Below, piece by piece: positions 19,468-59,094 of a stretch of DNA of 64,000 nucleotides. Positions within the stretch are counted from its first letter, which is position 1. Every line of letters begins with the position of its first letter. Both the position numbers and the translations under genes were made by a program. Under the pieces are notes generated by a model, which saw nothing but the letters and a program-made list of their open reading frames with translations, did not search any database and was not told the origin of the DNA. Source of the DNA: an uncultured Poribacteria bacterium (GTDB lineage: Bacteria; Poribacteria; WGA-4E; WGA-3G); NCBI GenBank assembly GCA_958296135.2, contig CATQHZ020000001.1:832001-896000 (forward strand). Reading direction: 5' to 3'.

Positions 19468-19577
19468 GGTGTTTTTTCTCCGTTGTAAATGGGGATATAA
19501 TAGCATATTTAGGGGAACGCGGTCAAGTCAGTAATATGGGGTGCCCGAGGCGTGGCGCGGGAGCGGGGGCTGCCGTG

Positions 19578-21030
19578 GGGTTCGACCGATCGCGAGGGTT
19601 CCCCTCGGCGAGTAGAAGGGGCGTTTTGGGAGGTCGAGAGATCGCGAGGGACAGTGGACATCTCTGCAGCGAGGCTGCAGAGATGACAACGTTTCGGCGT
19701 AACGGCCCTCGCGCTACGGTTAAAAGGTGCCTGTTTCGCGCGACGATTAAAAGGCGCTTAGTCCGTAGGGCGCGGTCCTGTGCTGCGCCGTGCATCGGTC
19801 TATCAAGAGGGATTGCGAGGAACAAGTTTTCCCGCGCGCGAGGGTGAAAAGGGGCCTTTCTTATCGGTCGAGAGATCGCGGCGGACAGTGGACATCTCTG
19901 CAGCGAGGCGGCAGAGATGACAAAGTTTCGGCGTGACGGCCCTCGCGCTACGGTGAAAAGGGGCCTGTTTCGCGCGACGATTAAAAGGCCCCTTAGTCCG
20001 TAGGGCGAGGGCCTGTCCCTCGCCATGCTGCGGTCTAGCGAGAGGGATTGCGAGGAACAAGTTTTCCCGCGCGCGAGGGTGAAAGGGGGCCTTTCTTATC
20101 GGTCGAGAGATCGCGGCGGACAGTGGACATCTCTGCAGCGAGGCGGCAGAGATGACAAAGTTTCGGCGTAACGGCCGCCGCGCTACGGTGAAAAGGGGCC
20201 TGTTTCGCGCGACGATTAAAAGGCCCTTAGTCCGTAGGGCGCGGTCCTGTGCCGCGCCATGCTTCGGTGAAAAGGCCCCTTAGTCCGTAGGGCGCGGTCC
20301 TGTGCTGCGCCGTGCATCGGTCTATCAAGAGGGATTGCGAGGAACAAGTTTTCCCGCGCGCGAGGGTGAAAGGGGGCCTTTCTTATCGGTCGAGAGATCG
20401 CGGCGGACAGTGGACATCTCTGCAGCGAGGCGGCAGAGATGACAAAGTTTCGGCGTAACGGCCCTCGCGCTACGGTGAAAAGGTGCCTGTTTTGCGCGAC
20501 GATTAAAAGGCCCTTAGTCCGTAGGGCGCGGTCCTGTGCTGCGCCATGCGTCGATCTGCAGAGGAGATGGCGGTAGTCCGGGATTTCGCGCGTTTTTTGT
20601 GTAGGTCGGTAGATCGCGAGGGACAGGCCCTCGCGCTACGGTGAAAAGGGGCCTGTTTCGCGCGACGGTGAAGAGGCCCCTTAGTCCGTAGGGCGAGGGC
20701 CTGTCCCTCGCCATGCTGCGGTCTAGCGAGAGGAATCGCGAGGAACAGGTCCTTGCGCGAGGGTGAAAAGGTGCCTTTCTTGTCGGTCGAGAGATCGCGA
20801 GGGACAGTGGACATCTCTGCAGCGGGACTGCAGAGATGACAAAGTTTCGGCGTAACGGCCCTCGCGCTACGGTGAAAGGGGCCGTTTAGCGGCGAACAGG
20901 CCCTCGCGCTACGGTGAAAAGGCCCTTAGTCCGTAGGGCGCGGTCCTGTGCTGCGCCATGCTGCGGTGAAAAGGGGGCTTTCTTGTCGCGCGAACGATCG
21001 CGAGGGACAGGCCCTCGCGCTACGGTTAAA
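19578..21030. repeat. Mosaic REP/BIME-like array (~1.45 kb)
   Basis: Alternating cgcgagggacaggccctcgcgctacgg and ccgtagggcgcggtcctgtgctgcgcc units; higher-order unit recurs at 19651, 19885, 20120, 20407, 20804. Confidence 0.9.
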
Positions 21031-21086
21031 GGGCCGTTTTGAATCGCAAAAAAATGATAGCATCTAAAAGAATACACATTTTTAAT

Positions 21087-21115
21087 TTGACAAGCGCGCA
21101 AAAATGTGGTATAAT
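21087..21115 (+). promoter_or_regulatory. Sigma70 promoter of LTD locus 1
   Basis: TTGACA-17 bp-TATAAT with extended -10 TG. Confidence 0.85.
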
Positions 21116-21171
21116 ATCTATGTCATTAATTAGGGGCATGAAAGTTAACGCCACGAAAAAGGAGCACGAAT

Positions 21172-21336
21172 GTGAACACTCAATTCCGCGCGGATCACCC
21201 GATTCGCCTGCAGATATCTGTGAAAGCGACGCTGAAGCCACCGCGGCTGCGCGCCGTATCCCCGTTTGCGTTTGCGCGTCCCGTTGACGATGCCCTAGAC
21301 CGGATCACCCCCCCCCCATTACTTTACGCTCGTTAA
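21172..21336 (+). CDS. Leader ORF with C10 tract (54 aa)
   Basis: AAGGAG RBS, GTG start, MNTQFRADHPIR...LRAV...FAR...TPPPLLYAR*; homologous to 51727-51897; below ORF-track cutoff. Confidence 0.65.
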   Translation: MNTQFRADHPIRLQISVKATLKPPRLRAVSPFAFARPVDDALDRITPPPLLYAR

Positions 21337-21569
21337 CCATCGATATACTCGGCAGGAAGGGGCTCCGGGGGGATATCCTTGCTCACAATTCCAATATGAA
21401 AAACCGCGCGCGGTGCACGCGCGCGACTCACATTGCTCCGTGGCAGCCGCTCACGTTCGCGTGGACGCGGCTGCCACGGGGCTCTTCGCGTTGCACCGTC
21501 GGCTGCAACGTCGAGGGCCACCAGCGTTGTTCCGGGGAAATTTCTGTCCCCACTAGGGATATAAAGGGG

Positions 21570-21609
21570 CAGGATAGCCGTGGGCATTCGCCCACGGTTA
21601 CCCTGTTTT
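21570..21609 (+). terminator. Terminator-like hairpin inside leader region
   Basis: CAGGATAGCCGTGGGC-attc-GCCCACGGTTACCCTG followed by TTTT. Confidence 0.5.
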
Positions 21610-21695
21610 CTCCGAGACTGCGACATCTGCTGCGCTCCACTGCAATCGGTGCGGCGGCAACGGTATTATCGGGACCCGAGGTCCCTCCTACTCTT

Positions 21696-21861
21696 CATGT
21701 TTCCGCCGCAATCGGTGTGGTGGAAACTCTAAGGCAAGTCGAGACCGGGAGGTCTCTCCTACATGTTTCCGCCGCAATCGGTGTGGTGGAAACTCTAAGG
21801 CAAGTCGAGACCGGGAGGTCTCTCCTACATGTTTCCGCCGCAATCGGTGGGGCGGAAACTC
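21696..21861. repeat. 66-bp tandem repeat, ~2.5 copies, containing a REP
   Basis: Units start at 21696, 21762, 21828; the two full units contain gagaccgggaggtctctcctac. Confidence 0.9.
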
Positions 21862-21908
21862 CCTATTCATTTTATTTCATTTCATTTTTCTAAGAGGAGA
21901 ATTTTCCT

Positions 21909-24900
21909 ATGAAAAGGCATTCCATTTTTTTCTTATGTTTGCTGCTCGTCGTCGGGATAGTTTCGATGCTCGGCATACCGATAGACGCACAAGCCGTAGA
22001 ATCAGTAGCTGGCATTAAAATCTACGTGAACCCAGAAACGGTGACCAGCTTCGCCGATGCGGGTTATCCAACCGGGGTGCAAACCGGGGTGTCACGTGTA
22101 CGGGGTCACCCGTGGGACAGGGGGCAGGATGGCTACGTGAAACTCGGTACGAGCCACGGCACGGTGAGCGGCGGTACCGAGATTACTGACTCCAACGACC
22201 ACGATAGCGCAAGCCCCGTCACGGCGGGTGTGGGGGATATCATCGCGATTGTGCTTCATCTACAGAATGTAAGCGTCTGGTACGCAACGTTAGACTTCCC
22301 TGGTTTTGATGCGGCCGGGTTGGCAGCACCAACGGATCTGACAAATAACGCAGACGGGATTAAACAGTCACCGGCTCCTAACGTCTTCTTGGAAGGCCCC
22401 GCTTGGTTCAATCCAGTACTTGCAAATGCTACCGCTGTCTACTATTATAAGGTGAAGGTTGGTGACGTTGATACCGACGGTGGGTGGCTTGATTCTTCAG
22501 CGACGGCTACCCCTTTTTCTAATAACCGATGGCCAGTGACAGGTCAAGCGGCGATCGCGTTCGACACTAGAAATGTCAAGTATCCCATAGTGGATGGCAG
22601 AGTCCCGCAAGTCACCGCTAACCCGTTCCGCGTGAGCAGTACGCCTCCCTCATCCCAAACTGGGGAGTCGCTCTATGCATGGAGCTACCAGAATTGTTAC
22701 CTCCCCTGGAGGGACATGGGCGCAGGTTATGCAGCCTTGGTGAGTTGCTATACCGTCGGACATCCCGTTGAATTGTCGTATCTGCTCGGGGATATCGAGA
22801 TCACGACGGGCCATCGGAGCGACCGGCAGACCTACGGTTTCTATAAAGCCGGCGATATCATCACAATCGAGATGGCCTTTACCGAACCGATACGAGTGCA
22901 GGATAGAAGCATCACATTGGAGTTCAAATGGGATGGAGATGTGCGTTACGCGCCGCTTGCTGACACTCAAGAAGGGACGGCTGCCGATCCCACGCCGACA
23001 GTGCTCACCTTTGCGTATGAAGTGCAGCCGGGCGACCGGACTTTTGGGGGCGGTCTGTTTATCAGGAAGCCCTTTGAGGGGAATGAGTCGGCGATCACAG
23101 ATGTTGCTGGGGACGCCTTTACTTATGAGGGCTCGGGTTATCCCGGGTTTTACCTCGCTGGTTGGGAGCAATCAACGGATGCTGTTCAGCCGACAGTGTG
23201 GATAGACAGGTCTGCAGGTGAAACGGGCACGGCGACGGCGGATTTTGATGTGGTATTCAGTTTCATTAATATCACCCCTTGGACCTATAATCGCGGCAAG
23301 GCGAACGAATCGACGCAGACAGAATATTTCCCGGATGAAGTGCCGGGGTTTTCAAGCGGTGACATCACTATCACGGATGCGTCTGGTGCCTCGTTGCAAA
23401 GTTATCTGGGCGAGGTGGAATTTCTCGGGTTAGCACATTTCAAAAGCGGGGACTACATCCGCTTTGCCATTCCGGCTCTAGCGGCCTATCGTGTCACCGT
23501 TGCGCCGCCGCTCGGTTTCGTCGGCGATGTCACTATCCAATTGCCGGCGGGTGCCACGCAGGACATTGCGGGCAACGGGAATCTGGCATCGCATACGTTA
23601 GTGGTGCCGGTGGACAACCCGTTGCGCGTGGTTGAAACGCCGGAGATTGTCAAGCCCGCAGCCGGTGTCCATGCCGCCGGGGATAAGATTGAAGTGTCGG
23701 TGACGTATGCCCGGGAGAATCTGCGGTATGAAGGGACGAACCCGCCGTATCTGGTGGTGTATGTGGGTGAACAGGTGTTAGCGAATGCGCGGCATGCTGT
23801 TTGGACAGCGGCGGCAGACACGAATTCGACGAAAGTGACGTTTGCGTATACGGTGGCAGCCACAGACCCGGTGGCAGAGACAGTGCGTGTTCCCTCTGTC
23901 AATATACTGGTGCCGTCAGGGACGACGTTGCTGTCTGGGCAACAGCGGCAGATAGGCACAGCGGCGCCAGCGGCGGCTTCTGGCACTGCGCCGCCCTCGG
24001 TGCCGGCAGCAGACCCGGCTCCGTTGGAAGATACGTCTGGGCGGGAGGTTTCGCCTGTCGTTCAGGAGACCCTGGTGTTGCCGGTTGTGCCGTTTTTCCT
24101 TGAGGAGACTTCGCCGAAGGCTGCTGCGTCTGCTGTGCCACGTTCGCCCATTGTTTTCAACGAGTTGGGCAATGGCAGCGGCGATGCAAACGACTGGCTG
24201 GAGCTCCGCAATGTCACGGGTTCGGAGGTATCCCTGAAAGACTATGAGCTTTCGGTTGTGGCCGATGGGGAAAAGGAAGATACATCGCTCGTCGTTTTCG
24301 CGGATGTGAGCGTGCCTGCGAATGGGCTCTTACTCATCACGAACAGTGCGCCGGATAAAACGCCGCTGGCAGGTGGTGAGCAGAAAGGGTTGTCGCATGC
24401 GTTTTTAGTGGATGATAAGCTATCCTTGCCGGATGATGGGCAGTTCCTGTTGATTCTGCGGAACGCGAAGGAGAAACTCGGTATGAACGCGGCATTTGTC
24501 GATGTCGCCGGTGGCGGTGGCAGTGACACGGATGCGTTCGTTCGCGAGCAGACGGGTGACTATGATACCTACGTGTGGCCGTTGCAAGTGCGTCAGGCAC
24601 CGGGTGGCGATACGGCATCGGCTCTCGGCTCTGGTAAGGTGTGGCAGCGCGCGAAGGCAGATATTGTGGGTTACCACAAAGATGCCTGGGCGGAAGCCGC
24701 CTTCACCGGTATCGGCTATGACAGGACTGTCTCGAAGTCTGCTGCGACGGGTGGCACGCCGGGGTATCCGAATGGTGCCGTGAAAACGGCAGCAGCTACG
24801 CCGAAGGGTAGTATCACCATCAGCGAAGTGATGTTCGATTCGGGTGGCGGCACACTGCCGCAATGGATAGAGCTCTACAACGCGTCGAAAACGGAGGCAC

Positions 24901-25802
24901 TGAATCTGAATCGGTGGAAACTAGAGTTCCAGAATGTGGATTCGGAAGATTTGGTAGGGCGGCCGATTGTGGCGTTGACGTTGCAGGAGAAGGTGATTCA
25001 GCCGAATCAGACGCTGCTCATCGTCGCGGGGCCTGCGCGTGCGTCATCAAGCACGGTGTTTCCTGCGGAGCGGGTCTACAACCTGTTGGATTTGCATCAG
25101 AGGAACCTGCGCATTAAGACTGCGCGGGATACGTTCCTGAGCGCGGAAGGGTTCTACCTGAAGCTTACCGATAGCAACGGTAACCTCGTAGACGAGGTTG
25201 GCAACACTGATGGTAATCGTCGGACGAAAGATGCGCCAGCGTGGGCGTTACCGGTGAGTGTTGAGGAAGGCGTTCGGAGTTCGCTGATTCGGCGTTACGA
25301 CAACGGCGTTGCACTGAAAGGGAAGGAGCGTGCGAGTTGGGCTCTGGCATCGAACCTCAAGCGACTCGCCGTGGAAGCCCTCCACTATGGGCATGCCGAG
25401 GACATCGGCACGCCGGGGTATCGCGCTGGCGGTGCGTTGCCGGTGGAGTTGTCAAGTTTCTCGGTGATGCAGAATGAAGCCGGCGCGGTTGTCTTAACAT
25501 GGACGACGGAGTCCGAAGTTGACAATGCTGGCTTCAACTTGCGCCGTAGTGAGAAACGCGACAGCGGTTTCACGCTGCTGAATGCTACGTTAATTGCGGG
25601 TGCTGGCACGACAGGTGAGCGTCAGACGTATACGTTTACAGATACGTCTGCGAAGCCGGGTGTTGAGTACTATTATCAGATCGAGGAAGTCGCGTTTGAT
25701 GGGCGGCCGGCGACGTTGGCGATGCGGATGTTGCGGGGGCCAGTCTCTGCGGCGAATCGGATGCTGACGACGTTCGGTGCTGTGAAGCAGCAGGCGAAAT
25801 AG
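21909..25802 (+). CDS. Large secreted lamin-tail-domain/Ig-like surface protein (1297 aa)
   Basis: Signal peptide; Ig-like units (DIAGNGN); two LTDs (IVFNE..DWLELRN; ITISEVMF..QWIELYN; GTPG); LPVELSSF domain; TTFGAVK tail; GAGGAG RBS. Confidence 0.88.
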   Translation: MKRHSIFFLCLLLVVGIVSMLGIPIDAQAVESVAGIKIYVNPETVTSFADAGYPTGVQTGVSRVRGHPWDRGQDGYVKLGTSHGTVSGGTEITDSNDHDSASPVTAGVGDIIAIVLHLQNVSVWYATLDFPGFDAAGLAAPTDLTNNADGIKQSPAPNVFLEGPAWFNPVLANATAVYYYKVKVGDVDTDGGWLDSSATATPFSNNRWPVTGQAAIAFDTRNVKYPIVDGRVPQVTANPFRVSSTPPSSQTGESLYAWSYQNCYLPWRDMGAGYAALVSCYTVGHPVELSYLLGDIEITTGHRSDRQTYGFYKAGDIITIEMAFTEPIRVQDRSITLEFKWDGDVRYAPLADTQEGTAADPTPTVLTFAYEVQPGDRTFGGGLFIRKPFEGNESAITDVAGDAFTYEGSGYPGFYLAGWEQSTDAVQPTVWIDRSAGETGTATADFDVVFSFINITPWTYNRGKANESTQTEYFPDEVPGFSSGDITITDASGASLQSYLGEVEFLGLAHFKSGDYIRFAIPALAAYRVTVAPPLGFVGDVTIQLPAGATQDIAGNGNLASHTLVVPVDNPLRVVETPEIVKPAAGVHAAGDKIEVSVTYARENLRYEGTNPPYLVVYVGEQVLANARHAVWTAAADTNSTKVTFAYTVAATDPVAETVRVPSVNILVPSGTTLLSGQQRQIGTAAPAAASGTAPPSVPAADPAPLEDTSGREVSPVVQETLVLPVVPFFLEETSPKAAASAVPRSPIVFNELGNGSGDANDWLELRNVTGSEVSLKDYELSVVADGEKEDTSLVVFADVSVPANGLLLITNSAPDKTPLAGGEQKGLSHAFLVDDKLSLPDDGQFLLILRNAKEKLGMNAAFVDVAGGGGSDTDAFVREQTGDYDTYVWPLQVRQAPGGDTASALGSGKVWQRAKADIVGYHKDAWAEAAFTGIGYDRTVSKSAATGGTPGYPNGAVKTAAATPKGSITISEVMFDSGGGTLPQWIELYNASKTEALNLNRWKLEFQNVDSEDLVGRPIVALTLQEKVIQPNQTLLIVAGPARASSSTVFPAERVYNLLDLHQRNLRIKTARDTFLSAEGFYLKLTDSNGNLVDEVGNTDGNRRTKDAPAWALPVSVEEGVRSSLIRRYDNGVALKGKERASWALASNLKRLAVEALHYGHAEDIGTPGYRAGGALPVELSSFSVMQNEAGAVVLTWTTESEVDNAGFNLRRSEKRDSGFTLLNATLIAGAGTTGERQTYTFTDTSAKPGVEYYYQIEEVAFDGRPATLAMRMLRGPVSAANRMLTTFGAVKQQAK

Positions 25803-25804
25803 AT

Positions 25805-26960
25805 GTAGGGCGGGGGTTGTCCCTCGCGATGTAGAAAACGGCCGTGGCTCTTCGGAGTTGCGGCTGTTTTCGTTTGGGTTGGGCGATCGCGAGGGATAGA
25901 CATTCGCGCGACGGTGAAAAGGCCCCTTCTACCGTAGGGCGCGGGCCTGTGCCGCGCCGTGCGATGGTAAAAAGGGCCCTTAGTCCGTAGGGCGCGGTCC
26001 TGTGCCGCGCCATGCATCGGTCAATCGAGAGAGATCGCGAGGGACAGTGGACATCTCTGCAGCGAGGCTGCAGAGATGACAAAGTTTCGGCGTGACGGCC
26101 CTCGCGCTACGGTGAAAAGGGCCCGTCAGTGAAAAGGCCCTTAGTCCGTAGGGCGCGGTCCTGTGCTGCGCCATGCATCGATCTGCAGAGAAGAGGCCCG
26201 AAGTCCTGGGGCTTCGGTTGTTTTTTCTGTCGGTCGGTAGATCGCGAGGGTAAAAAGGGGGCTTTCTTGTCGCGCGAACGATCGCGAGGGACAGGCCCTC
26301 GCGCTCCGGTGACTAAAAACGCTTCTTAAACCGTAGGGCGCGGTCCTGTGCCTCGCCATGCTTCGGTCTATCGAGAGGAATCGCGAGGGGCACCCTCGGC
26401 GATTCGCGCTCGCCGGGTTTTCCCTCGTGCTACGGTGAAAGGGGCGGGTTCGTGTGGATCGAACGATCGCGGCGGACAGGCCGCCGCGCTACGGTGAAAA
26501 GGGCCCGTCGGTAAAAAGGCGCTTAGTCCGTAGGGCGCGGTCCTGTGCTGCGCCGTGCTTCGGTCTGGGGAGGAGATGGCAGTGTCCCCGGGGTTTCGGT
26601 CGTTTTTTGTGTCGTTCGGTAGATCGCGAGGGTAAAAAGGGGGCTTTCTTGTCACGTGAACGATCGCGAGGGACAGGCCCTCGCGCTACGGTAAAAGGGG
26701 CCGTTTAGCGAGGGACAGGTCTTCCCGCTCGTGCTCCGGTGAAAGGGGCGGGTTCGTGTGGATCGAACGATCGCGAGGGACAGGCCCTCGCGCTACGGTG
26801 ACTAAAAACGCTTCTTAAACCGTAGGGCGCGGTCCTGTGCCGCGCCATGCTTCGGTCTATCGAGAGGAATCGCGAGGGGAACCCTCGGCGATTCGCGCTC
26901 GCCGGGCCCTCGCGCTACGGTTAAGAGGGGCCGCTTTCGCGCTACGGTGAAAGGGGCCTC
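25805..26960. repeat. Mosaic REP/BIME-like array (~1.15 kb)
   Basis: Same hairpin units as 19578-21030. Confidence 0.9.
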
Positions 26961-40541: not shown

Positions 40542-40614
40542 TGACTTCTTCTCCTTGATACGGGATAAAAGTATGATATGATAAATGACGTTTTAATGCA
40601 AGGTTTTTTTTGGG

Positions 40615-40662
40615 TTGCAAAGTGTCGTTTTTTGTGGTATCCTATTCTGATGCGATGAAGTT
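40615..40662 (+). promoter_or_regulatory. Sigma70-like promoter, copy A
   Basis: TTGCAA-17-TATCCT with extended TG; near-duplicate at 44433-44479. Confidence 0.55.
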
Positions 40663-41022
40663 AAAAGGGGCCCTTAGTCCGTAGGGCGGGGTGCTGTGCT
40701 GCGCCGTGCCTAGGTCTGTAGAGCAGATGTCCCGAACATCGAGACGCGGGAGGTCTCTCCTACCGGGGGACAGGTTGTCCCTCGCGCTGCGGTTAAAAGG
40801 GGTCTTTTTTCGCGATCTGGGCATCGCGAGGCACAAGACCTCGCGCTACGGTTGAAGGGGCCTTCGCGCTACGGTGAAAAGGGGCCGCTTTCGCGCGATG
40901 GTTGAAGGGGTCCTTAGTCCGTAGGGCGCGGTCCTGTGCTGCGCCATGCATCGATCTATCAAGAGGAATCGCGAGGGACAGGTTTTCCCTCGCGCTACGG
41001 TGAAAAGGGGCCTTTCGTGCTA
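40663..41022. repeat. Mosaic REP array
   Basis: All three major hairpin families present. Confidence 0.85.
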
Positions 41023-41041
41023 CGAAGGAGAAATACAATAG

Positions 41042-41551
41042 ATGGAACCTAAAATCCTTGTTGAAAGCAAAGGCAAACCCGTAAGAGACGTGGATTTGCT
41101 GGTGTTGTTTCCAAATACAACATGGAAACAAGTTTTCAGTGACGAAACGGGACAAGCTTGTCCCAAGCTTTATACGAACAAGTTACCGATGACTGTCTTC
41201 GCCGCATGTCCCGGCTTCAAGGCGTATGTGGAAAAAGACTGGGTGCCGGCGGAGAGAGTGCTGACAATTGAGCTGCAAGAATTACCCGATGGCGGTTCAC
41301 GTATCTTTCCACTATGCACCGGCTGCCTGCCACAATTTGAGGGGCGGTTAAACCCTATTCTTGATAGCGGAAAACGGACGTATCTCTACGCCGACAACAT
41401 TGCTATCAATGATGCCGACACACAGCCTGTCTCTTTCAAGTTCGGCGAGGATTTGCACCTCGTCGATTCAAACGGCAAGGCGTTGATGGTGCGAATCGTG
41501 GACATGATTAACAGAGCAGCGTTGTTGCAATTCCGTAAGTCGACACCCTAA
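41042..41551 (+). CDS. Hypothetical protein (169 aa)
   Basis: AAGGAG RBS; beta-rich, protein-like; no family recognised. Confidence 0.7.
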   Translation: MEPKILVESKGKPVRDVDLLVLFPNTTWKQVFSDETGQACPKLYTNKLPMTVFAACPGFKAYVEKDWVPAERVLTIELQELPDGGSRIFPLCTGCLPQFEGRLNPILDSGKRTYLYADNIAINDADTQPVSFKFGEDLHLVDSNGKALMVRIVDMINRAALLQFRKSTP

Positions 41552-41632
41552 GCGGAGACACGGCGGTTATGGCAGACTGGATGCGTCCTCAACGGACCGA
41601 CCCGCAGCTAGATAAACAACAGCGAGAGATAT

Positions 41633-44398
41633 ATGTCCTCATACCGAAAGAAATTAATTGAAGTCAGCCTGCCATTGGAGGCCATCAATCGCGAATCCGC
41701 AAAGGATGCATCGCTGACGCATGGGCATCCGTCAACACTGCACAGATACTGGGCGCGCCGCCCGCTCGCAACCTGTCGGGCTATCATTTTTGCCAGTCTG
41801 GTGGATGACCCGGGCTCTTGCGAGGATGAATTTCCTACCGAGAGCGACCAGGGCGCAGAACGCAACCGACTCCACGGCCTCCTCCGGCAGCTCGTTGTCT
41901 GGAAAAATAGCAACGATGAGAATATCTTGGCGGCGGCGCGATATGAAATTGCCCGTTCCATTGCACGTCACCGCGGCGAGACTGCCCCCGCGACATCCGA
42001 TGCGGTGTTGCGATACCTCAGTGAGCACTGCCCCGCGGTTTACGATCCGTTTTGTGGTGGTGGCTCCATTCCGCTAGAGGCGCAGCGGCTCGGACTTCGC
42101 GCGCGAGGCTCTGATTTGAACCCGCTGCCGGTGCTGATCACAAAGGCTATGGTTGAACTCCCGCATCCCTTCCGCGACCTTCCTCCCGTGAACCTCAACG
42201 TTCAGCCGTCAAGCAGGATTGTGAAAGAGGGCAGGTGGCGCGGCACGGCGGGTTTGGCGAACGATGTCCGCTACTATGGTGCGTGGGTGCGCGAGGAGGC
42301 ACACAAGCGTATCGGCCACCTTTACCCGGACGTGCAACTGCGCGATGGGAAAAAGGCGACTGTCGCAGCATGGTTATGGGCGCGCACTGTGCCGTGTATT
42401 AATCCGGCGTGCGGGCTCCAGATGCCGCTGCTGAAAACTTTTCAACTTTGCAGAAAAAAGGGGAATGAGCATTGGGTGAAGCCGGTTGTGGATCGGGAAT
42501 CAAATCAAATCTCATGGCAGGTGCAGCGTCATACCGAGGGAGTGCCGAAGCGCGGCACTGTCAACCGCACTGGTGCGCACTGTGTTGCTTGCGGAAGTGC
42601 TGTCAAATTAGATTATGTCCGCGAGCAGGCAAGCGCGGGCAAAATGGGAGAAACGTTGACAGCGGTAGTCGCCGAGGGAAAAACGAAGTTGTTTATCTCT
42701 CCTACCGATTCGGACATTCAAGCTGCTTTCAAAGCCACGGCAAGTTGGAGACCGAGGGGAAAACTGCCACATCATGCAGCGAATTTAAGGGTGCAGGGTT
42801 ATGGTATAACCGATTGGCATCAACTTTTCACTGAGCGGCAGCTTACCGCGCTTACCACTTTTAGCAATTTACTGTCAGAGGCTCGCAACCGTGTGATACA
42901 AGATGGTGCAGGAACCGACTATGCAGACGCTCTTTGCACCTATCTTGCTTTAGCTGTTGGAAGGGCTGCAGACGGCCACTCTAGTTTCACGTTCTGGTAT
43001 AACACCAATGAACGTGTTGTTGGGGTTTTCGCGAGCCAATTCATTCCAATGCGGTGGAATTTTCCTGAGGCAAATCCTTTCTCCGATGCCAGACAAAATT
43101 GGATGTCTCAGGTTAAGTTAGTAGCTAAGGCAGTTGAGAATTTGCCTGCTTTAGCGAACATCAGCGAGGCCTATCAAGCAGATGCAACTACTACGAGGCA
43201 TGCTGATGATGGGCCTGTTATTGTCACCGATCCGCCGTACTACGATAACATCGGATACGCCGATTTGTCTGACTTCTTTTATGTCTGGCTGAGACCGGTG
43301 CTCCGTGACACCTATCCGGCACTGTTTAGCGGCATAGTAACGCCGAAAGATGAAGAAATGATTGTGAACAAAAATCGGTTTGAAGATTCCCATACACGTT
43401 TTGAGGCATTAATGGCAAAGGCACTGCTGCGGATACGCCGGAACTGCACCGACGAGTTTCCGTCCTCCATTTTCTATGCCTACAAACAGCAGGAGGAGGC
43501 ACGCGATGGCAAAACCTCCACCGGGTGGGAAACGATGCTGACAGCTGTTGTTGAGGCAGGCTTTCAAATCGTCGGTACATGGCCCATGCGCACCGAACAA
43601 CTAAAGGCACTCAAGTCACGGAAAAACGCCCTCGCTTCATCCATCGTGCTCGTTTGCAGGCCGCGGCCCGAAGATGCGCCGTTCATCACCCTTCGGAACT
43701 TTCAGGCGGAACTCAAAAAGGCGATGCCGCCCGCACTCCGAAGACTCACCCGCACCGCAAAGATAAGTCCCGTAGATCTGGCGCAAGCCGCCATCGGCCC
43801 CGGTATGGAGGTGTATTCTCGCTACAGCAAAGTGATGCGCATCAGCGGCGAGATTGTCCCGATTCGCGAGGCACTGAAATATATCAACGACGAAATCACC
43901 GCTTACCATGAAGAAGAGAGCGGCACATTGGACAAGACGACGCAATTCTGTTTGACATGGTTCAAGCAGCACGGGTATCAGGAGGGCGATTTCGGCACGG
44001 CGCAGCTGCTCGCTACCGCGACGGGTGTTGATGTCGCCAGTCTGCATGGAAAAGTGCTGACGGCGGAACGGGGACGGGTGAAACTTTTCCGTCGCGAGGA
44101 TTACTATGAGCGTGAATTGAGCGATGAGGTGTCGGCGTGGGAGGGATGCCAGCAGATGGCGTTCCATCTGTCGGATGTTGCGGTAGGCGGTGGTATCCAA
44201 GCGTGTGCGGCGGTGTTGCGCGCGATGGGGGCTCAGGAGGATTCGGCGGAGCGTCTGGCGCGCGTGTTGTATAGTTATTATGAGGCATTGGACGATTCGG
44301 CGAGTGCGTTAGTCTATAACAATTTGGTTCAGCAGTGGCCCGTGATTTGGGATGCGAGTCGTTCGCCGCGGCAACAGTCGGTCTTCAAGGCTGTCTGA
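41633..44398 (+). CDS. DUF1156 family DNA amino-methyltransferase with Zn-ribbon
   Basis: KKLIEVSLPL..GHPSTLH.YWARRPLA, DPFCGGGSIPLEA (motif I), C..PAC/C..CG, TDPPYYDN (motif IV). Confidence 0.9.
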   Translation: MSSYRKKLIEVSLPLEAINRESAKDASLTHGHPSTLHRYWARRPLATCRAIIFASLVDDPGSCEDEFPTESDQGAERNRLHGLLRQLVVWKNSNDENILAAARYEIARSIARHRGETAPATSDAVLRYLSEHCPAVYDPFCGGGSIPLEAQRLGLRARGSDLNPLPVLITKAMVELPHPFRDLPPVNLNVQPSSRIVKEGRWRGTAGLANDVRYYGAWVREEAHKRIGHLYPDVQLRDGKKATVAAWLWARTVPCINPACGLQMPLLKTFQLCRKKGNEHWVKPVVDRESNQISWQVQRHTEGVPKRGTVNRTGAHCVACGSAVKLDYVREQASAGKMGETLTAVVAEGKTKLFISPTDSDIQAAFKATASWRPRGKLPHHAANLRVQGYGITDWHQLFTERQLTALTTFSNLLSEARNRVIQDGAGTDYADALCTYLALAVGRAADGHSSFTFWYNTNERVVGVFASQFIPMRWNFPEANPFSDARQNWMSQVKLVAKAVENLPALANISEAYQADATTTRHADDGPVIVTDPPYYDNIGYADLSDFFYVWLRPVLRDTYPALFSGIVTPKDEEMIVNKNRFEDSHTRFEALMAKALLRIRRNCTDEFPSSIFYAYKQQEEARDGKTSTGWETMLTAVVEAGFQIVGTWPMRTEQLKALKSRKNALASSIVLVCRPRPEDAPFITLRNFQAELKKAMPPALRRLTRTAKISPVDLAQAAIGPGMEVYSRYSKVMRISGEIVPIREALKYINDEITAYHEEESGTLDKTTQFCLTWFKQHGYQEGDFGTAQLLATATGVDVASLHGKVLTAERGRVKLFRREDYYERELSDEVSAWEGCQQMAFHLSDVAVGGGIQACAAVLRAMGAQEDSAERLARVLYSYYEALDDSASALVYNNLVQQWPVIWDASRSPRQQSVFKAV

Positions 44399-50851: not shown

Positions 50852-51595
50852 GAGAGCCCTCCTGGGGGACAGGTTTTCCGTCGCGCGACGGTGAAAGGGG
50901 CCTCTTTCGCGCGAGGGTGAAAATGCGTCTTAGTCCGTAGGGCGCGGTCCTGTGCTGCGCCATGCGTCGATCAATCGAGGTGAATGGCGAGGAGCAGGTC
51001 TTCGCGCGAGGGTGAAAAGGGCCCCTTAGTCCGTAGGGCGCGGTCCTGTGCCGCGCCATGCTGCGGTCTGCGGAGGAAATGCGGTAGTCCGTGGGGTTTT
51101 GGCGGTTTTTGTGTGGGTCGAGAGATCGCGAGGGACAGTGGACATCTCTGCAGCGAGGCGGCAGAGATGACAAAGTTTCGGCGTAACGGCCCTCGCGCTA
51201 CGGTAGAAGGAGCGGTTTTGGGGGTCGGTGAAAAGGGCCCCTTAGCCCGTAGGGCGCGGTCCTGTGCCGCGCCGTGCGTCGATCTGCAGAGAAGAGTAGC
51301 GCAGTCCTGGGGCTTCTGTCGTTTTTTGTGTGGTTCGAGGGATCGCGAGGGACAGGCCCTCGCGCTACGGTACTAAGGGGCCGTTTTGTGTGGATCGAGA
51401 GATCGCGAGGGACAGGCCCTCGCGCTACGGTGAAAAGGGGCCGATGGTGGAAGGGGCTGTTTTGAGGGATCAGGGGATCGCGAGGGGAACCCTCGGCGAT
51501 TCGTGATCGCCGGGCCCTCGCGCTACGGAAGAAGGGATGCTACGGTGAAAAGGGGCCGGTGTATCGAACATCGAGACCAGGAGGTCTCTCCTACC
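50849..51595. repeat. Mosaic REP array (~0.75 kb)
   Basis: Same hairpin families as other arrays. Confidence 0.9.
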
Positions 51596-51632
51596 GGAAA
51601 ATGGGAGAATTAAGAAGATTGCAATTTTAATG

Positions 51633-51661
51633 TTGACAATTGCACAAAAATGTGGTATACT
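51633..51661 (+). promoter_or_regulatory. Sigma70 promoter of LTD locus 2
   Basis: TTGACA-17-TATACT; spacer ends CAAAAATGTGG as in locus 1. Confidence 0.85.
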
Positions 51662-51726
51662 ATGCTATGCTGTAACTGATTTGGGCGAGATGTGAAATGT
51701 CGCCCCTTACGTCTAGGAGAACGAAC

Positions 51727-51897
51727 GTGAAAACTCAACAGGCTTTCATTACGATGGATAACCCTATCCGTCCGAATAGCACCGGTGCATTGACGCTGCA
51801 GCTGCCGTGGCTGCGCGCGGTGTTCACGTTCGCGCGCGGTGTTGTGACACTGCGTTCTCCTGAAACACTCGTACCCCCCCCCCTTTACATATATTAA
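51727..51897 (+). CDS. Leader ORF with C10 tract (56 aa)
   Basis: AGGAG RBS, GTG start, MKTQ...DNPIR...LRAV.TFAR...VPPPLYIY*; homologous to 21172-21336. Confidence 0.65.
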   Translation: MKTQQAFITMDNPIRPNSTGALTLQLPWLRAVFTFARGVVTLRSPETLVPPPLYIY

Positions 51898-51976
51898 CCA
51901 TTGCGAGCTCGGTAGGAAGGCGATCCGGGGGACACCCCTGCCCACTTCCGCTGCAGAATTCCCTTTTAGAGCCCAG

Positions 51977-51999
51977 GCGCGCTTTCCAAGCGCGCTTTT
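51977..51999 (+). terminator. Terminator-like hairpin inside leader region
   Basis: GCGCGCTT-tcc-AAGCGCGC followed by TTTTcgtgttgtt. Confidence 0.45.
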
Positions 52000-52148
52000 C
52001 GTGTTGTTGCGTAGGTACTTCTTGCGCTCGGGGAAGGCATCGGGACGAGGGGATTTCTCTCAGGTGGGCAGGCATCGCAATCGGCTAGCACGCACGGCAC
52101 TGCCGCAACCGGTGCGGTGCCGCGCCATAAATTGAATGAGGAATTTAA

Positions 52149-55100
52149 ATGATGATGAAAACTTTTTTGAACGCTTACGTTTTTCTGTTCCTTGTTGGGG
52201 TCGTCTTCATGGCTGCCCCGATAGCCGCGCAAGCGCAAGAAGATACCACGCCTCCGAGACCAATCACTTATGTTCCGGGTGAACAATATCCGCTCTCGTT
52301 CGTGAATGCAGCCGGTGCGACGTTGCCCTATGCACCGCATACCGGGCGTTCTCGCACTGCACGTGTGGTCAGAGACTGCAATGGGTATCCGTTTGATACG
52401 ACGTTCGGAGCTGCTTTCGCTGTGTTGTGTGATGCAGTGGATACGGAAACGTTCTACTCCACTCCTGAGCCGTGGGGGGTTGCCTATTACGGTGTCGGCG
52501 ATACCATCTATCTTCGTTGGGAATTTGACGAAAATGTGACGGTGACCGGCACGCCGAAATTGGAATTCTGGTTTAAGTCACATTCTCTCGCCGTCGGCGG
52601 TGACGGCCACCCGGGCTCGCGCTGCGCAACTCTCAAAGCCGGTGAGGGAAATGGCTCGAGCAACACACTTACCTTTGAATACACGGTGGAGCCGGGTGAC
52701 TATAACCCGGGTCTCACAATTGTGTCAGCGTTTTGTAGGCCCCATGACTTCAGCATAACAAATAATCATGACTTCAGCATAACAGATAATGTTGGCAACG
52801 AATTTGATCCAATCTCTCTAGGGGATTTTGGGTGGTTTGTAGCAAAACCGACGGCTAGAAGAGTTGATGGGATAAGCCCGTCGGTGAGAATCACCGGCGT
52901 GATATCGGCAGACTCTGAGACGCACGATGGGGATTACTTGAAACAGGAAGTCTTTGTTGAGACGCTTGAGCATAGTGTGTTACAGGCGGCCTCTCCCGTG
53001 CGCGTTTCTGGCGTGAAGACAGGCCCCTTTACGGTGGAAATCAGATTTTACGAAAACTTGGAAATACTCCCTTATCCAACACATGTTCTTGAGAGGACTG
53101 ATGTCGCAGAGGAGCCCGTGGGCTTTGAGGGAGATGACATCCAGGTGACTGATGCGAGTGGCAACGTGTTGGCTTGGCATGTCTCACCACCGACGTTTAT
53201 CGGGCTGGACCATCGTGCTACATTGCGCGGGGCCCATGGTCACGAGGGCCGTGCTGGGAATAAGGCCTATGTGGGCGAAGCAATCTGGAAGCCCTCGTTC
53301 GCGGTTTACAAAGTTACCATTACACCGACTGATTTTGATGGCGGTGAGGTGAGCATCCAAGTGCCTGCAGGTGCCACGCAGGACATCGCCGGTAACCCCA
53401 ATCACGTATCCAATACGTTAACCGTGTCTGTAGGGGACTTGAGCCCCCCGGTCGTGCAAAGCCTCCGGTTCGTTGAAACCGCAAGCGAGATATACACTGT
53501 CGGCGATGAGATTGCGGTTGAGGTGACGTTCGACGAAGACGGTGTCCGTCACGATGGCGGTGCGGCCAATCCGCCGTATCTGACGCTCTATTTAGGGGAG
53601 AGGACGCTGGCGAATGAACGGCATGCGACGTGGCAGCCGAACTCGGAACGCACGGGTTCAACGGTAGTGACGTTCGTGTATCCTATCCAATTCGGAGATG
53701 CGGCTGAGTCGGTGAGTGTGAAAGCGACGGGGATTTCGGTTCCTGTGGGGGTGACGGTGAGCGATGCGGATGGGAACCAGATTGTTGGGGCATCGTCTCG
53801 GGCTGAGCCGCCTGGGACTGCGCCGGATGAGGAGACACCTGCGTCGGATATGCAGTTGCGCTTTGAGGATGCCACCTTGCGTGAGATTCGTGAAACGGAA
53901 GAGAAAAAACCTGTCCACACCATTTTCCCGGTGCTAGAGACGGCGGATCCGAAGTCTCCCGCCTCCGATGTGCCGCGCAGCCCGTTGGTGTTCAACGAGT
54001 TGGGCAATGGCAGTGGTGCTGCAAATGACTGGCTGGAATTGCGGAATGTCACGGGTTCGGCTGTCTCCTTGAAAGACTGGGAGCTCAGCGTCGTGCAAGA
54101 TGACAAAAAGGAAGATACGTCGCTCATTGTGTTTCCGGATGCCAGCGTGCCGGCGAACGGCCTGCTGTTGGTAACAAACAGCGCGCCAGAGAAAACGCCG
54201 CTGGCGGGTGGTGAGAAGAGAGGGTTGTCGCATGCGTTTTTGGTGGATGCGGGGCTCTCGCTGCCGGATGATGGGAAGTTCCTGTTGATTCTCCGTAATG
54301 CGAAGGATAAGCTTGGCATGAACGCGGCGTTCGTGGATGTCGCCGGTGGCGGTGGCAGTGACACGGATGCGTTCGTCCGCGAGCAGACAGGCGACTACGA
54401 TACGCACGTCTGGCCGTTGCAAGTGCTACAAGCTCCCGGTGGTGACACCGAAGACGCGCTAAGTTCGGGCAAAGTGTGGCAGCGCGCGAAAGCGGATATC
54501 ATTGGGTATCATAAAGATGCCTGGGCGGAAGCCGCCTTCACCGGTATCGGCTATGATAGGAATGTTTCCAAGTCGGCGGCGACAGCAGGCACGCCGGGGT
54601 ATCCGAATGGTGCCGTGAAAACGGCAGCAGCTACGCCGAAGGGTGCTATCACTATCAGCGAAGTCATGTTTGATTCGGGTGGTGGCACGCTGCCGCAGTG
54701 GATAGAACTCTATAATGCGTCCAAAACGGAGGCCCTGAATCTGAATCGGTGGCAGCTGGAGTTCCAGAACGTCGATTCGGAAGACTTGGTAGGGCGGCCG
54801 ATTGTGGCGTTAACGTTGCAGGAGAAGGTGATTCAGCCGAATCAGACGCTGCTGCTCGTCGCGGGTGCTGCGCGTGCCTCGTCGGCGGATGTTTTCCCGG
54901 CCGATAGGGTTTACAATCTGTTGGCTTTGCATCAGCGGAACCTGCGCATCAAGACTGCGCGGGATACGTTCCTGAGTGCCGAGGGCTTCTATCTGAAGTT
55001 GACAGACGGCAATGGTAACCTCGTAGACGAGGTTGGCAACACCGATGGCAATCGTCGGACGAAGGATGCGCCGGCGTGGGCGTTACCGGTGAGTGGCGAG

Positions 55101-55639: not shown

Positions 55640-56395
55640 GTAGGACGGGGGCTGTCCCTCGCGATGCAGAGAAAACGGCCGTGGCTCTTCGGGGTTGCGG
55701 CTGTTTTCGTTTGGGTTGGGCGATGGCGAGGGGCCCCTTCTACCGTAGGGCGCGGTCCTGTGCCGCGCCATGCATTGGTCTATCAAGGGGGCTTTCTTGT
55801 TGCGTGAACGATCGCGAGGGACAGTGGACATCTCTGCAGCGAGGCGGCAGAGATGACAAAGTTTCGGCGTGACGGCCCTCGCGCTACGGTTAAAAGGGCC
55901 CGTCGGTGAAAAGGGCCCCTTAGTCCGTAGGGCGCGGTCCTGTGCTGCGCCATGCCTCGGTCAATCAAGGGGCTTCGCGAGGGACAGGTTTTTGCGCGAT
56001 GGTGAAAAGGGGCCTTTCTTGTCGGTCGAGGGATCGCGAGGGACAGGCCCTCGCGCTACGGTTAAAAGGGCCCGTCAGTTAAAATGCGCCTTAGTCCGTA
56101 GGGCGCGGTGCTGTGCCGCGCCATGCATTGGTCTATCAAGAGGAATCGCGAGGGACAGGTTTTCCTTCGCGCGACGGTGAAAGGGGCCTTTCTTGTCGCG
56201 TGGACGATCGCGAGGGACAGGCCCTCGCGCTACGGTAGAAGGAGCGGTTTTGAGGGTCGGTGAAAAGGGGCCCTTAGTCCGTAGGGCGCGGTCCTGTGCT
56301 GCGCCGTGCATCGGTCTGTAGACGAACATCGAGACGCGGGAGGTCTCTCCTACCGGGGGATGAGTTTTCTGTCGCGCGAGAGTGAAAAGGGGCCG
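55640..56395. repeat. Mosaic REP array (~0.75 kb)
   Basis: First ~130 bp closely resemble the sequence just after the locus 1 stop (25805 onward). Confidence 0.9.
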
Positions 56396-58514: not shown

Positions 58515-58537
58515 TCTGCATCTTGAGCGGTGCTCTG

Positions 58538-58970: not shown

Positions 58971-59094
58971 TGGGTTTGCAACGATGAGCGGGCAAGTGTT
59001 CTGTTGGAACAGAGCCGTGCGGAAAATTTGTCTTGCATTTGATGCGAATTGATGTTACAATTGTGACATTGATATCAGGAGGCCTCTGAAACTT

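Follow-up and report, generated by a model that had tools for sequence, protein, structure and literature searches.

A candidate poly-C-gated switch of leader reading frames upstream of surface-protein genes in a sponge-symbiotic Poribacterium

We analyzed a 64,000-nucleotide stretch (hereafter the window) of an uncultured Candidatus Poribacteria genome, a sponge symbiont (assembly GCA_958296135.2, contig CATQHZ020000001.1, positions 832,001 to 896,000). The region 21087-21908 of the window, on the plus strand, lies directly upstream of a gene at 21894-25802, which has a GAGGAG ribosome-binding site (RBS; 21894-21899), an ATG at 21909, and encodes a 1297-aa signal-peptide protein with a Lamin Tail Domain (LTD). 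A promoter, TTGACA-17 nt-TATAAT with a TG before the -10 element, is located at 21087-21115. It matches the sigma-70 consensus at 12 of 12 positions, is conserved in all 12 paralogous leaders of the genome, and is the only promoter-like site found in 20900-22000 on either strand, so that no second promoter was detected before 21909. It is followed by a Shine-Dalgarno sequence (SD; aggag, 21160-21164) and a leader ORF of 54 aa, which starts at GTG 21172, ends in ...DRITPPPLLYAR and stops at TAA 21334-21336. A C10 tract (21308-21317) encodes the PPP of a (T)PPP sequence shortly before this stop, which is contained in a GTTAAC motif (21332-21337).

Downstream of the stop, the leader is structured. 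A G-rich box, CGGCAGGAAGGGGCTCCGGGGGGATATCC (21350-21378), is conserved in LTD-type leaders and is predicted to pair with the C tract. It is followed by a C-rich, G-poor, unstructured spacer (21378-21406), which we consider a candidate Rho loading site: the C-G skew is at least +0.2 in 18 of 23 leaders at +40 from the stop, and a Rho gene is present in the genome, but this function is inferred. Two GC hairpins follow within 21405-21480, at about 21405-21427 and about 21434-21480. The latter contains more pairs in the minimum free energy (MFE) fold than the 13 originally described, whereas the former lacks a U tail in the LTD leaders of this genome and sits where the other species carry a hairpin with a U-rich tail. 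The other species have an added hairpin followed by CCTATTTTCTTTTG. An 11-bp terminator-like hairpin, TAGCCGTGGGC-ATTC-GCCCACGGTTA (21575-21600), is followed by CCCTGTTTTC, a short, interrupted U run, the whole element spanning 21575-21610. This hairpin is present in 8 of 12 leaders of this genome and 7 of 11 in other species, with variable loops and G.U-compatible stem changes, and its core occurs only in these leaders (8 sites). Finally, a tandem repeat with a 66-bp period (21696-21861, 2.5 copies, 98% matches) is built around a genome-wide REP-like palindrome (151 genome hits for the core). Each unit corresponds to 22 codons, so the long frame described below is kept. Searches against Rfam returned no match at the gathering score in the whole window and only chance-level hits (E up to 5) in 20400-22100, and no Pfam family was found for the leader peptides.

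The three frames entered after the tract differ markedly. In the conserved-stop frame, f0, which is the frame of the present C10, translation would stop at TAA 21334-21336. One C fewer (f1) leads to TAG 21554-21556, 19 nt before the terminator-like hairpin. One additional C (f2) yields a 240-aa frame that is stop-free for 573 nt from the end of the tract (21318-21893) and ends at TAA 21891-21893, 15 nt before the ATG and directly abutting the RBS. No Pfam family was found for its ATG-started part (21396-21890), and a second start at ATG 21396 was rejected because this codon is ATA in three paralogues. The observation made in the original prediction, including the promoter, leader, hairpins, repeat and shifted frames, thus held in every element.

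A second, diverged leader is located at 51633-52148, upstream of a second LTD gene (52149-55637, 1162 aa). It comprises a promoter (51633-51661), an SD (51715), GTG 51727, a C10 tract (51874-51883), TAA 51895-51897 (56 aa, ending ...LVPPPLYIY) and a hairpin (51975-51997). Here, it is the -1C frame that approaches the main gene, ending at TGA 52133-52135, 13 nt before ATG 52149, while the +1C frame ends at TAG 52086-52088. In total, the genome contains 12 paralogous leaders, each preceding a 1160-1450-aa signal-peptide LTD paralogue, with tracts of C8 (five copies), C9 (four) or C10 (three). A DNA search with the leader in 41 relatives found it only in the three genomes of the genus.

To ask whether a shifted frame ends at the downstream RBS more often than expected by chance, which had been proposed as a test, we compared 23 leaders from three species of this genus. 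An SD and start-codon ORF is open up to the tract in 22 of them. The f2 frame reaches within 45 nt of the main ATG, or overlaps it, in 12 of 23 leaders (5 of 11 in this genome and 7 of 12 in two other species), whereas dinucleotide shuffles predict 1.1 (Poisson-binomial P about 3e-11, although paralogues are not independent); for the copy at 21087-21908 alone, P=0.007. The f1 frame does so in 2 of 23, against 0.86 expected. In many leaders the long frame ends 0-34 nt before the ATG or overlaps it as ATGA; such overlaps occur in the leaders G000_1154093, L011 and L023, and the gap is 0 nt in L002. Between the conserved TAA and the main ATG, f2 contains no stops in 10 of the 22 leaders parsed, while the other forward frames contain 1-9 and the reverse frames 1-10. 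The frame stays open across indels, REP insertions and 65-73% identity between species. However, it falls short of the main start by 55-306 nt in 11 of 23 leaders, and in six it overruns the start by 49-122 nt out of frame, which could hinder rather than help initiation. In three other genera (g3, g4 and g6), one non-f0 frame reaches the start of the next gene in 11 of 17 loci tested, including all 7 of one G004 gene family, with leaders of 246-427 nt; if the four omitted loci that had a downstream ORF are counted as misses, this becomes 11 of 21. In most G004 leaders, as in the second leader of the window, the frame that reaches the RBS is f1 and not f2.

The motif A-C8+-N12-17-GTTAA has 23 sites in this genome and occurs in 51 of 101 genomes of the family, with the backward control near zero. 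Tracts next to the same flank range from C8 to C14 in different genomes. The GTTAA, and a YAC 5-7 nt before it, are conserved as nucleotides across genera. The motif precedes surface or adhesin-like genes and DNA methylases, and the same arrangement precedes fn3+cadherin, Laminin_G_3, WD40, cohesin-dockerin, patatin and DNA methylase genes. In four loci of this genome, the third frame is the main ORF itself, corresponding to classical in-ORF phase variation. Runs of G and C in the genome peak at a length of 9 (C8 11, C9 17; G8 17, G9 27), including G9 runs in methylase genes, while A/T runs fall steadily with length. The tract is selected as a homopolymer and not as proline codons: its codons are always CCC, although CCG is preferred in this genome, CCC makes up 22% of Pro codons, and CCC-CCC accounts for 3.4% of Pro-Pro pairs in long ORFs. 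Comparisons between species revealed only weak amino acid constraint on the leader ORF (pN/pS of 0.87, against 1.08 and 1.09 off-frame) and none on the long frame (0.91 in f2, against 0.77 and 0.90 in f0 and f1). The present frames of the 23 leaders are scattered (f0 10, f1 8, f2 5).

Evidence on tract variation within the population was ambiguous. In Logan contigs of four public runs, all from one sample, an exact 90-nt contig of run X1 covers 21287-21376 without any difference, so C10 is not an assembly slip at this locus. A form one C shorter at 21308 appears in two contigs each of runs X2 and X3 and in none of X1 and X4, but paralogue unitigs also map there and may be its source; we therefore did not use it as evidence. 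Searches of a public protein collection with the leader peptide gave three near-length and two longer hits, all equal to this genome's own copies and with the same ends, so they give no information on polymorphism. Two are recorded only on shorter contigs (13,674 and 10,503 bp) and three on two contigs each, which gives no sign of differing states, although these records are not established as independent of this genome's sample. Scans of metagenome contigs with two patterns returned no hits. MutS is present, and on this evidence mismatch-repair loss as a driver of slippage was rejected.

The explanation that we favor, with moderate confidence, is a portable gate built from a leader ORF and a homopolymer. 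In this view, a strong constitutive promoter and SD drive translation of about 45 codons into a C8-C10 tract. The conserved frame stops about 15 nt further on, at the TAA in GTTAA, a second frame usually stops early too, and the third (here +1C, that is C11 or C8) is kept free of stops through the whole 400-570-nt structured leader, ending at, just before, or overlapping the RBS and start codon of the LTD gene. As the long frame shows no amino acid constraint and has no Pfam family, we suggest that it is kept open for ribosome transit and not for a protein product. Slipped-strand mispairing would move each locus heritably and reversibly among the frames. With short translation, the naked leader would fold into its terminator-like hairpins and expose a C-rich stretch to Rho, so that little full-length mRNA is made; this would be the OFF state, predicted for both window copies at C10. 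With long translation, ribosomes would follow the polymerase through the hairpins and deliver themselves to the main start, giving ON by anti-attenuation, anti-polarity and translational coupling. The surface protein itself would never be altered. Our analysis establishes the anatomy, its conservation, the open third frame and the selection for a homopolymer, whereas translation of the leader, switching at the DNA level, any effect of tract length on expression, the identity of the ON state, and the termination and coupling steps are inferred. The main RBS lies in an AU-rich stretch that looks accessible, so coupling may not be needed, and the conservation of GTTAA at the nucleotide level and of the short peptide's end is not explained by a simple OFF state.

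The interpretation given in the original prediction, that tract length or ribosomal frameshifting sets readthrough and coupling without changing the surface protein, was partly supported. The collected leaders, the conserved terminator-like hairpins inside the long frame, the absence of a detected second promoter and the homopolymer selection agree with it. Its suggestion of mgtL-like polyproline stalling is not needed and fits poorly, since PPP occurs only in C10 copies and C8 copies encode only PP in the conserved frame, and a fixed ribosomal frameshift site would not show the observed spread of frames.

Among alternatives, recoding without DNA change is the least unlikely. RNA polymerase slippage on the C run, or -1 ribosomal slippage on C CCC CCC, could send a set fraction of ribosomes into the long frame, so that the tract acts as a rheostat, possibly tuned by EF-P, proline-tRNA or growth rate, and not as a heritable switch. 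All-C runs allow tRNA-Pro to re-pair in any frame, and +1 shifts at CCC-C and slippage on long homopolymers are established. The short frame's stop and peptide end are conserved across genera, as expected if f0 is the normal resting state, no clear tract heterogeneity was seen, and the same states occur in another assembly. However, the genomic states are spread over all three frames and tract length ranges from C7 to C14, which a fixed recoding site would not tolerate. A +1 shift at CCC-C leads to f1, which stops within 23 nt in 13 of 23 leaders. C CCC CCC is formally slippery, but no stimulatory structure sits 5-9 nt after the tract, which is itself paired in the MFE. The G9 runs in methylase genes and the run-length peak at 9 also point to DNA-level contingency loci.

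Somewhat less likely, the short peptide may be the working part, acting as a nascent-chain arrest or sensor peptide (...[F/I]TPP(P)LxYxR-stop) whose stalling, perhaps EF-P- or ligand-dependent, controls the downstream structures as in tnaC, speFL or mgtP, with the poly-C run as a by-product or secondary override. The block AVSPFARPVDD and the end TPP(P)-L-x-Y/I-x-R/S/C-stop recur in diverged leaders and in other genera, C8+14 nt and C10+15 nt versions differ by exactly 3 nt, which keeps the stop in frame, and uORF-controlled Rho termination is well documented (PMC12360218). Against this, the constraint on the peptide is only weak, 13 of 23 leaders are currently out of the conserved frame, and C8 copies have only PP. 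The last sense codon varies among CGT, AGT and TGT (Arg, Ser, Cys) while the letters GT are kept, which points to nucleotide-level and not residue-level conservation. The first hairpin starts about 70 nt after the stop, beyond the reach of a stalled ribosome, and the open third frame remains unaccounted for.

It is improbable that the C tract acts as RNA, pairing with the G box or with a G-rich small RNA or protein, as for the variable G repeat bound by RepG in Helicobacter pylori, with tract length tuning the pairing and the frames incidental. The MFE pairs the tract with GGGG/GGGGGG at 21358-21372, the leader folds far better than shuffles (z -9.9), the G box is conserved in LTD-type leaders of both species, and length-variable 5'-UTR homopolymers targeted by sRNAs are known (PMC12721329). 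However, other leader families with the same tract and GTTAA have no downstream G run, so this hairpin is not a universal feature, and the model does not predict the frame-specific lack of stops over hundreds of bases, the conserved SD and start, or the stop placement at the RBS. An opposite-strand sigma-B-like or spacer-tract promoter (TTAAC...G9...TAA) was rejected on visual inspection because the spacings do not fit. Lack of function, with the tract and the open frame as by-products of GC-rich repeats, duplication of one ancestral leader or homopolymer assembly error, is very unlikely: although the paralogues share ancestry, GC-rich sequence has few stops and homopolymers are error-prone in long-read assemblies, the shuffle controls keep composition, only one of six frames is depleted of stops and stays open between species, the motif is enriched across the family, and C10 is confirmed by an independent contig.

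The arrangement resembles several established systems in part. With slipped-strand contingency loci of Campylobacter, Neisseria, Haemophilus and Helicobacter and with phasevarion mod genes it shares a G/C run of 8-10 or more with frame-dependent early stops, an association with surface proteins and methylases, and a genomic excess of long runs, but here the tract lies in a separate leader ORF, the proposed ON frame encodes no functional protein and ends at the main gene's RBS, the product would never be truncated or altered, and one cassette is reused before many genes. As in leader-peptide attenuation and uORF-controlled Rho termination (trp/his leaders, tnaC, speFL, mgtL/mgtP; PMC12360218), a promoter-proximal short ORF with an SD precedes hairpins, terminator-like elements and a C-rich stretch, and ribosome position would decide read-through. 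However, the input would be a mutable DNA tract and not tRNA charging or a ligand, no mutually exclusive antiterminator structure is evident in the MFE or the alignment, and ON would need translation of the whole leader instead of a pause. As proposed here, leader-embedded invertible elements (E. coli fim, C. difficile flgB; PMC12360218) give stochastic, heritable ON/OFF control after initiation, through termination in the leader, as does C. difficile cwpV; here the switch would be homopolymer slippage read by ribosomes, without a recombinase or inverted repeats. Compared with translationally coupled gene pairs, whose stop/start overlap or stop within the RBS is matched here in the +1C frame only, the upstream cistron is a non-coding-like frame hundreds of bases long, entered only at certain tract lengths. 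Finally, length-variable 5'-UTR or intergenic repeats (H. pylori tlpB G-repeat/RepG, H. influenzae hmw 7-bp repeats with an RNase III element, promoter-spacer tracts such as Bordetella fim; PMC12721329) modulate surface proteins from outside the structural gene, as proposed here, but act through sRNA pairing, RNA processing or promoter spacing, whereas here the repeat would be translated and the reading frame would be the variable.

Phase variation and leader-peptide attenuation are each textbook mechanisms, but a homopolymer in a dedicated leader ORF, whose alternative frame is kept open only so that ribosomes can travel to the next gene's start, was not described in the literature that we could search: no paper was found on slipped-strand phase-variable uORFs, those on phase variation with upstream open reading frames and homopolymeric tracts did not describe it, and the only one on phase variation in Poribacteria was unrelated. 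A more far-reaching possibility, which we regard as unlikely though not excluded, is that Poribacteria run an antigenic-variation-like program on their eukaryote-like surface proteins and restriction-modification methylases through one reusable three-state gate, in which one frame would give an arrest or sensor peptide, its end in a conserved GTTAA context, that makes the locus conditionally inducible, a second would be hard OFF, and the third constitutive ON by ribosome transit through the attenuators and coupling to the main start. This would be a new class of contingency switch joining genetic and physiological control.

The leaders also caution annotators that long "non-coding" leaders can be under selection for an open frame. 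If the favored explanation is correct, it would provide a compact, portable switch design with testable rules, and the symbiont could switch whole sets of adhesin-like, eukaryote-like proteins (LTD, fn3-cadherin, LamG, WD40) and methylases on and off without ever making truncated products. It would thereby show how an uncultivated sponge symbiont diversifies its surface towards host and phage.

The leader that extends over 21087-21908 lies in front of ORF 21909-25802, which encodes a 1297-aa signal-peptide protein with a Lamin Tail Domain (Pfam LTD, E 1.7e-21). It starts with a perfect sigma-70-type promoter, TTGACA-17-TATAAT with TG, at 21087-21115, which is the only promoter-like site found in 20900-22000. 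This is followed by the SD aggag at 21160-21164 and by a 54-aa ORF that begins at GTG 21172 and reads VNTQFRADHPIRLQISVKATLKPPRLRAVSPFAFARPVDDALDRITPPPLLYAR up to its stop. A C10 tract at 21308-21317 codes the PPP of this peptide, and the stop TAA 21334-21336 lies inside GTTAAC. A second GTTAAC is present in the 5' UTR of the leader, between the promoter and the SD (21144-21149), where paralogues have TTTAAC or TTCAAC, and could pair with the GTTAAC at the leader stop. Downstream of the stop, the leader contains a G-rich box at 21350-21378, a C-rich, G-poor spacer, two GC hairpins, an 11-bp hairpin at 21575-21600 followed by CCCTGTTTTC, a 66-bp tandem repeat at 21696-21861, and an AU-rich stretch that leads to the RBS GAGGAG 21894-21899 and ATG 21909. 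As RNA, the leader folds far better than shuffled sequence (MFE -289.6 kcal/mol, z -9.9 against 20 shuffles). Adding one C opens a 240-aa frame that ends at TAA 21891-21893, whereas removing one C gives a stop at TAG 21554-21556. The observation behind the original prediction, a poly-C tract in a leader ORF whose shifted frame runs to the RBS of the LTD gene, is thus confirmed at every coordinate, and an exact 90-nt contig from a public sequencing run spans the tract with C10. The surrounding DNA is rich in repeats. Dense arrays of several interleaved REP-like GC-rich repeat families, including GGCCCTCGCGCTACGGTGAAAAGGGGCC units and a GACAGTGGACATCTCTGCAGCGAGGCTGCAGAGATGACAAAG palindrome, flank the LTD genes and other genes (19500-21050, 25850-26950, 40600-41030, 50870-51600, 55730-56330, and 58520-59000), and the window contains 36 direct-repeat families. 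Two ORFs of 169 aa and 921 aa (41042-44398) are located between such arrays, and the N-terminus of the larger one resembles methylase-associated defence proteins by eye.

BLAST searches of the 5.19-Mb genome of this Candidatus Poribacteria identified 12 leaders of this type. Ten resemble the window copy, and two resemble a second, diverged copy that also lies in the window (51633-52148). Each leader stands before a signal-peptide paralogue of 1160-1450 aa. The tract is C10 in three copies, C9 in four, and C8 in five. In 7 of the 12 leaders, the ORF ends at the conserved TAA in GTTAA, with C10 copies reading TPPPLLYAR and C8 copies reading TPPSLYAS before the stop. C10+15 nt and C8+14 nt differ by exactly one codon. 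The other five are one base out of frame. Two of the LTD paralogues contain a second poly-C tract about 240 nt into the coding sequence (C8 at position 268329 and C9 at position 4477656 of genome contig C1). The copy with C9 is interrupted after 81 aa and resumes in another frame, so these two genes may carry both a leader gate and an in-ORF gate. By DNA similarity, the leader occurs only in the three genomes of the genus among 41 relatives searched, and the second species has at least 10 copies, with C7 to C10.

To compare reading frames, we named them relative to the conserved TAA: f0 is the frame of that stop, f1 the frame entered with one C fewer, and f2 the frame entered with one C more. 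Of 24 leaders collected, 23 could be parsed, 11 from this genome and 12 from two other species, while the window's second copy, whose motif is ATTAA, was not parsed. The original prediction had proposed testing whether one shifted frame of homologous leaders ends at the downstream RBS more often than by chance, and this prediction holds. The f2 frame runs from the tract to within 45 nt of the main ATG, or past it, in 12 of the 23 leaders, whereas dinucleotide-preserving shuffles of each leader predict 1.1 (Poisson-binomial P about 3e-11). For f1 this is the case in 2 of 23, against 0.86 expected. The P value overstates the case because paralogues are related; however, the result holds separately in this genome (5 of 11) and in the other species (7 of 12), whose leaders are only 65-73% identical and differ by many indels. 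Between the conserved TAA and the main ATG, f2 has no stop at all in 10 of the 22 leaders parsed for this comparison, while the other two forward frames have 1-9 stops and the three reverse frames 1-10. The end points of the long frame are telling: it overlaps the start as ATGA in three leaders, ends 0 nt from it in one, 15 nt in the window copy, where the stop abuts the RBS, and 33 nt in another, and it overruns the start by 49-122 nt in six. In 13 of the 23 leaders, f1 stops within 23 nt of the tract, and the usual design is therefore two short frames and one long frame. In the window's second leader, the frame that reaches the RBS is f1 (TGA 52133-52135, 13 nt before ATG 52149), and f2 ends 60 nt short.

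The long frame seems to be kept open but not kept as a protein. Between species, pN/pS in the post-stop region is 0.91 in f2, 0.90 in f1, and 0.77 in f0. The ATG-started part of the long frame has no Pfam family, and the frame runs through REP-like palindromes that occur 151 times in the genome. Selection therefore seems to act on the absence of stops, that is, on ribosome passage. The pre-tract leader ORF is open with an SD and a start in 22 of 23 leaders and is only weakly constrained overall (pN/pS 0.87 against 1.08 and 1.09 off-frame), although a block AVSPFARPVDD is shared by both species. The homopolymer itself is selected as such. CCG makes up 50% and CCC 22% of Pro codons in long ORFs, and CCC-CCC accounts for 3.4% of Pro-Pro pairs.

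Homopolymers of G and C in this genome do not fall off with length (C7 35, C8 11, C9 17, C10 4; G7 27, G8 17, G9 27, G10 6), whereas A and T runs fall steadily. Contig C4 holds C17 and C88 runs and C1:3588040-3588063 holds G/T-rich low-complexity sequence, which are probably artefacts; contig C2 (143,886 bp), with 36.8% GC against 54% for the chromosome, may be a foreign replicon or a binning contaminant. The motif A-C8+-N12-17-GTTAA has 23 sites in this genome and 36 in the sister species. It occurs in 51 of 101 genomes of the family, while the backward control pattern has 0 hits in nearly all. At phylum level, it is found in 47 of 99 genomes of this family, 4 of 26 of a sister family, 1 of 2 of another, and none of the 23 genomes of the other six families. 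Next to one and the same flank (...ACTTCACATTCGTTAA), the run varies from C9 to C14 in different genomes.

Further leader families in this genome share the same layout, with a consensus promoter, an SD, an ORF of about 45-50 codons, and the end TPP(P)xxxxx before the stop. They stand before genes for a WD40 protein with a C-terminal sorting domain, a patatin, an ABC-2 permease, two Laminin_G_3 proteins, a cohesin-dockerin protein, a 2948-aa fn3+cadherin protein, another LTD protein, two N6_N4 DNA methylases, and a DUF362 protein; of the 14 products scanned, three had no family. In many of these leaders, GTTAAGTAA supplies stops in two frames. The third frame ends 3-31 nt before the next start in five loci, and in four loci it is the main ORF itself, which is the classical in-ORF arrangement. 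Reading by eye, we also found G9 runs in the 5' coding parts of, or just upstream of the RBS of, several DNA methyltransferase or restriction-modification genes outside the window (C1:1877380, 1878239, 3449419, 171076, and 1866091, and the 195552 family), which look like classical phasevarion-type switches. In three other genera, 30 loci were retrieved, and 17 that had a leader-like layout and a downstream ORF were tested. One non-f0 frame reaches the next start in 11 of them, including all seven leaders of one gene family, whose leaders are 246-427 nt long. By frame, f1 reaches the start in 8 of 17 (1.33 expected) and f2 in 6 of 17 (1.44 expected). Of the 13 loci left out, four had a downstream ORF and would count as misses (the loci designated L071, L075, L082, and L086), which would give 11 of 21; three were of the in-ORF type, five had no downstream ORF found, and in one the pattern was not found again.

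Terminator-like hairpins lie inside the long frame. The hairpin TAACCGTGGGC-loop-GCCCACGGTTA followed by CCCTGTTTT is present in 8 of 12 leaders of this genome and in 7 of 11 in the other species. Its loops vary, the two stem changes stay G.U-compatible on this strand, and its core occurs nowhere else in the genome (8 sites). In the sister species (G002), the first hairpin after the leader stop, CGCGTGC-TTT-GCACGCG, carries a clear U-rich tail, CCTATTTTCTTTTG (L002, L005, L008, L011, L020, L021, and L023); a first hairpin with this tail is present in 7 of 11 leaders in the other species. In the LTD leaders of this genome, the homologous hairpin is followed by ACTCACATTGC, so the attenuator make-up differs between species. 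A C-rich, G-poor spacer follows the G box in 18 of 23 leaders, and Rho is encoded in the genome.

The element works like a cross between SSR phase variation, leader-peptide or uORF-dependent attenuation, and translational coupling. A recent review of Rho-dependent termination lists uORF-controlled cases such as tnaC and speFL, but for phase variation by a DNA switch only invertible elements (fim, flgB) (PMC12360218). A 2025 paper summarises intergenic SSR mechanisms as promoter spacing and sRNA targeting of 5'-UTR G repeats (PMC12721329). Premature-stop polarity occurs in phase-OFF genes such as meningococcal siaD. Our literature searches, which did not extend to subscription-only papers and supplements, found no description of an SSR inside a uORF that gates transit to the next gene, and nothing on phase variation or LTD proteins in Poribacteria. 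The leader has the structural features of a contingency locus and of a coupled gene pair, but it does not qualify as a programmed frameshift site or as a polyproline sensor, and no antiterminator could be demonstrated.

Several findings speak against a phase-variable reading or qualify it. Direct evidence for heterogeneity of the tract is lacking: a form one C shorter appears in two contigs each in 2 of 4 runs of a single sample, but paralogue contigs also align there. Five leader peptides occur with identical ends in the public protein collection, two recorded only on shorter contigs and three on two contigs each, and MutS is present. In 11 of 23 leaders, f2 stops 55-306 nt short of the start, in six it overruns the start out of frame, and the main RBS looks accessible without coupling. 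Among alternative explanations, transcriptional or ribosomal slippage could add to, or replace, DNA slippage, although the spread of present states (f0 10, f1 8, and f2 5 of 23) fits a mutable tract better than a hard-wired recoding site. The conserved short-frame end and the nucleotide-level conservation of GTTAA across genera (last sense codon CGT, AGT, or TGT) are left unexplained by the phase-variable model, which leaves room for a working arrest or sensor peptide in f0. The predicted pairing of the C tract with the G box is not general.

Taken together, the original interpretation of a phase-variable attenuator is partly supported, as its central prediction on reading frames is borne out across paralogues, species, and genera, while switching and its effect on expression remain inferred. 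We are highly confident that the frame architecture is a selected, functional design, and moderately so in the full model of phase-variable anti-attenuation and coupling. What the analysis establishes is the promoter, the SD-ORF, the homopolymer, and the frame architecture, together with the terminator-like hairpins, the C-rich spacer, and the presence of Rho. From these we infer that the tract slips during replication and moves a locus among the frames. In the short frames, the ribosome would leave about 70 nt before the first hairpin, and the leader would then fold and terminate intrinsically or be cleared by Rho, leaving the surface gene OFF. In the long frame, ribosomes would track the polymerase through the hairpins and terminate at the RBS or start, giving read-through and coupled initiation (ON), although the sign of the switch is a guess. 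On this reading, both window copies (C10, f0) would be OFF. Only 2 of the 12 LTD genes of this genome, and 3 of 11 in the other species, are in the long frame, which resembles a variable surface-antigen family.
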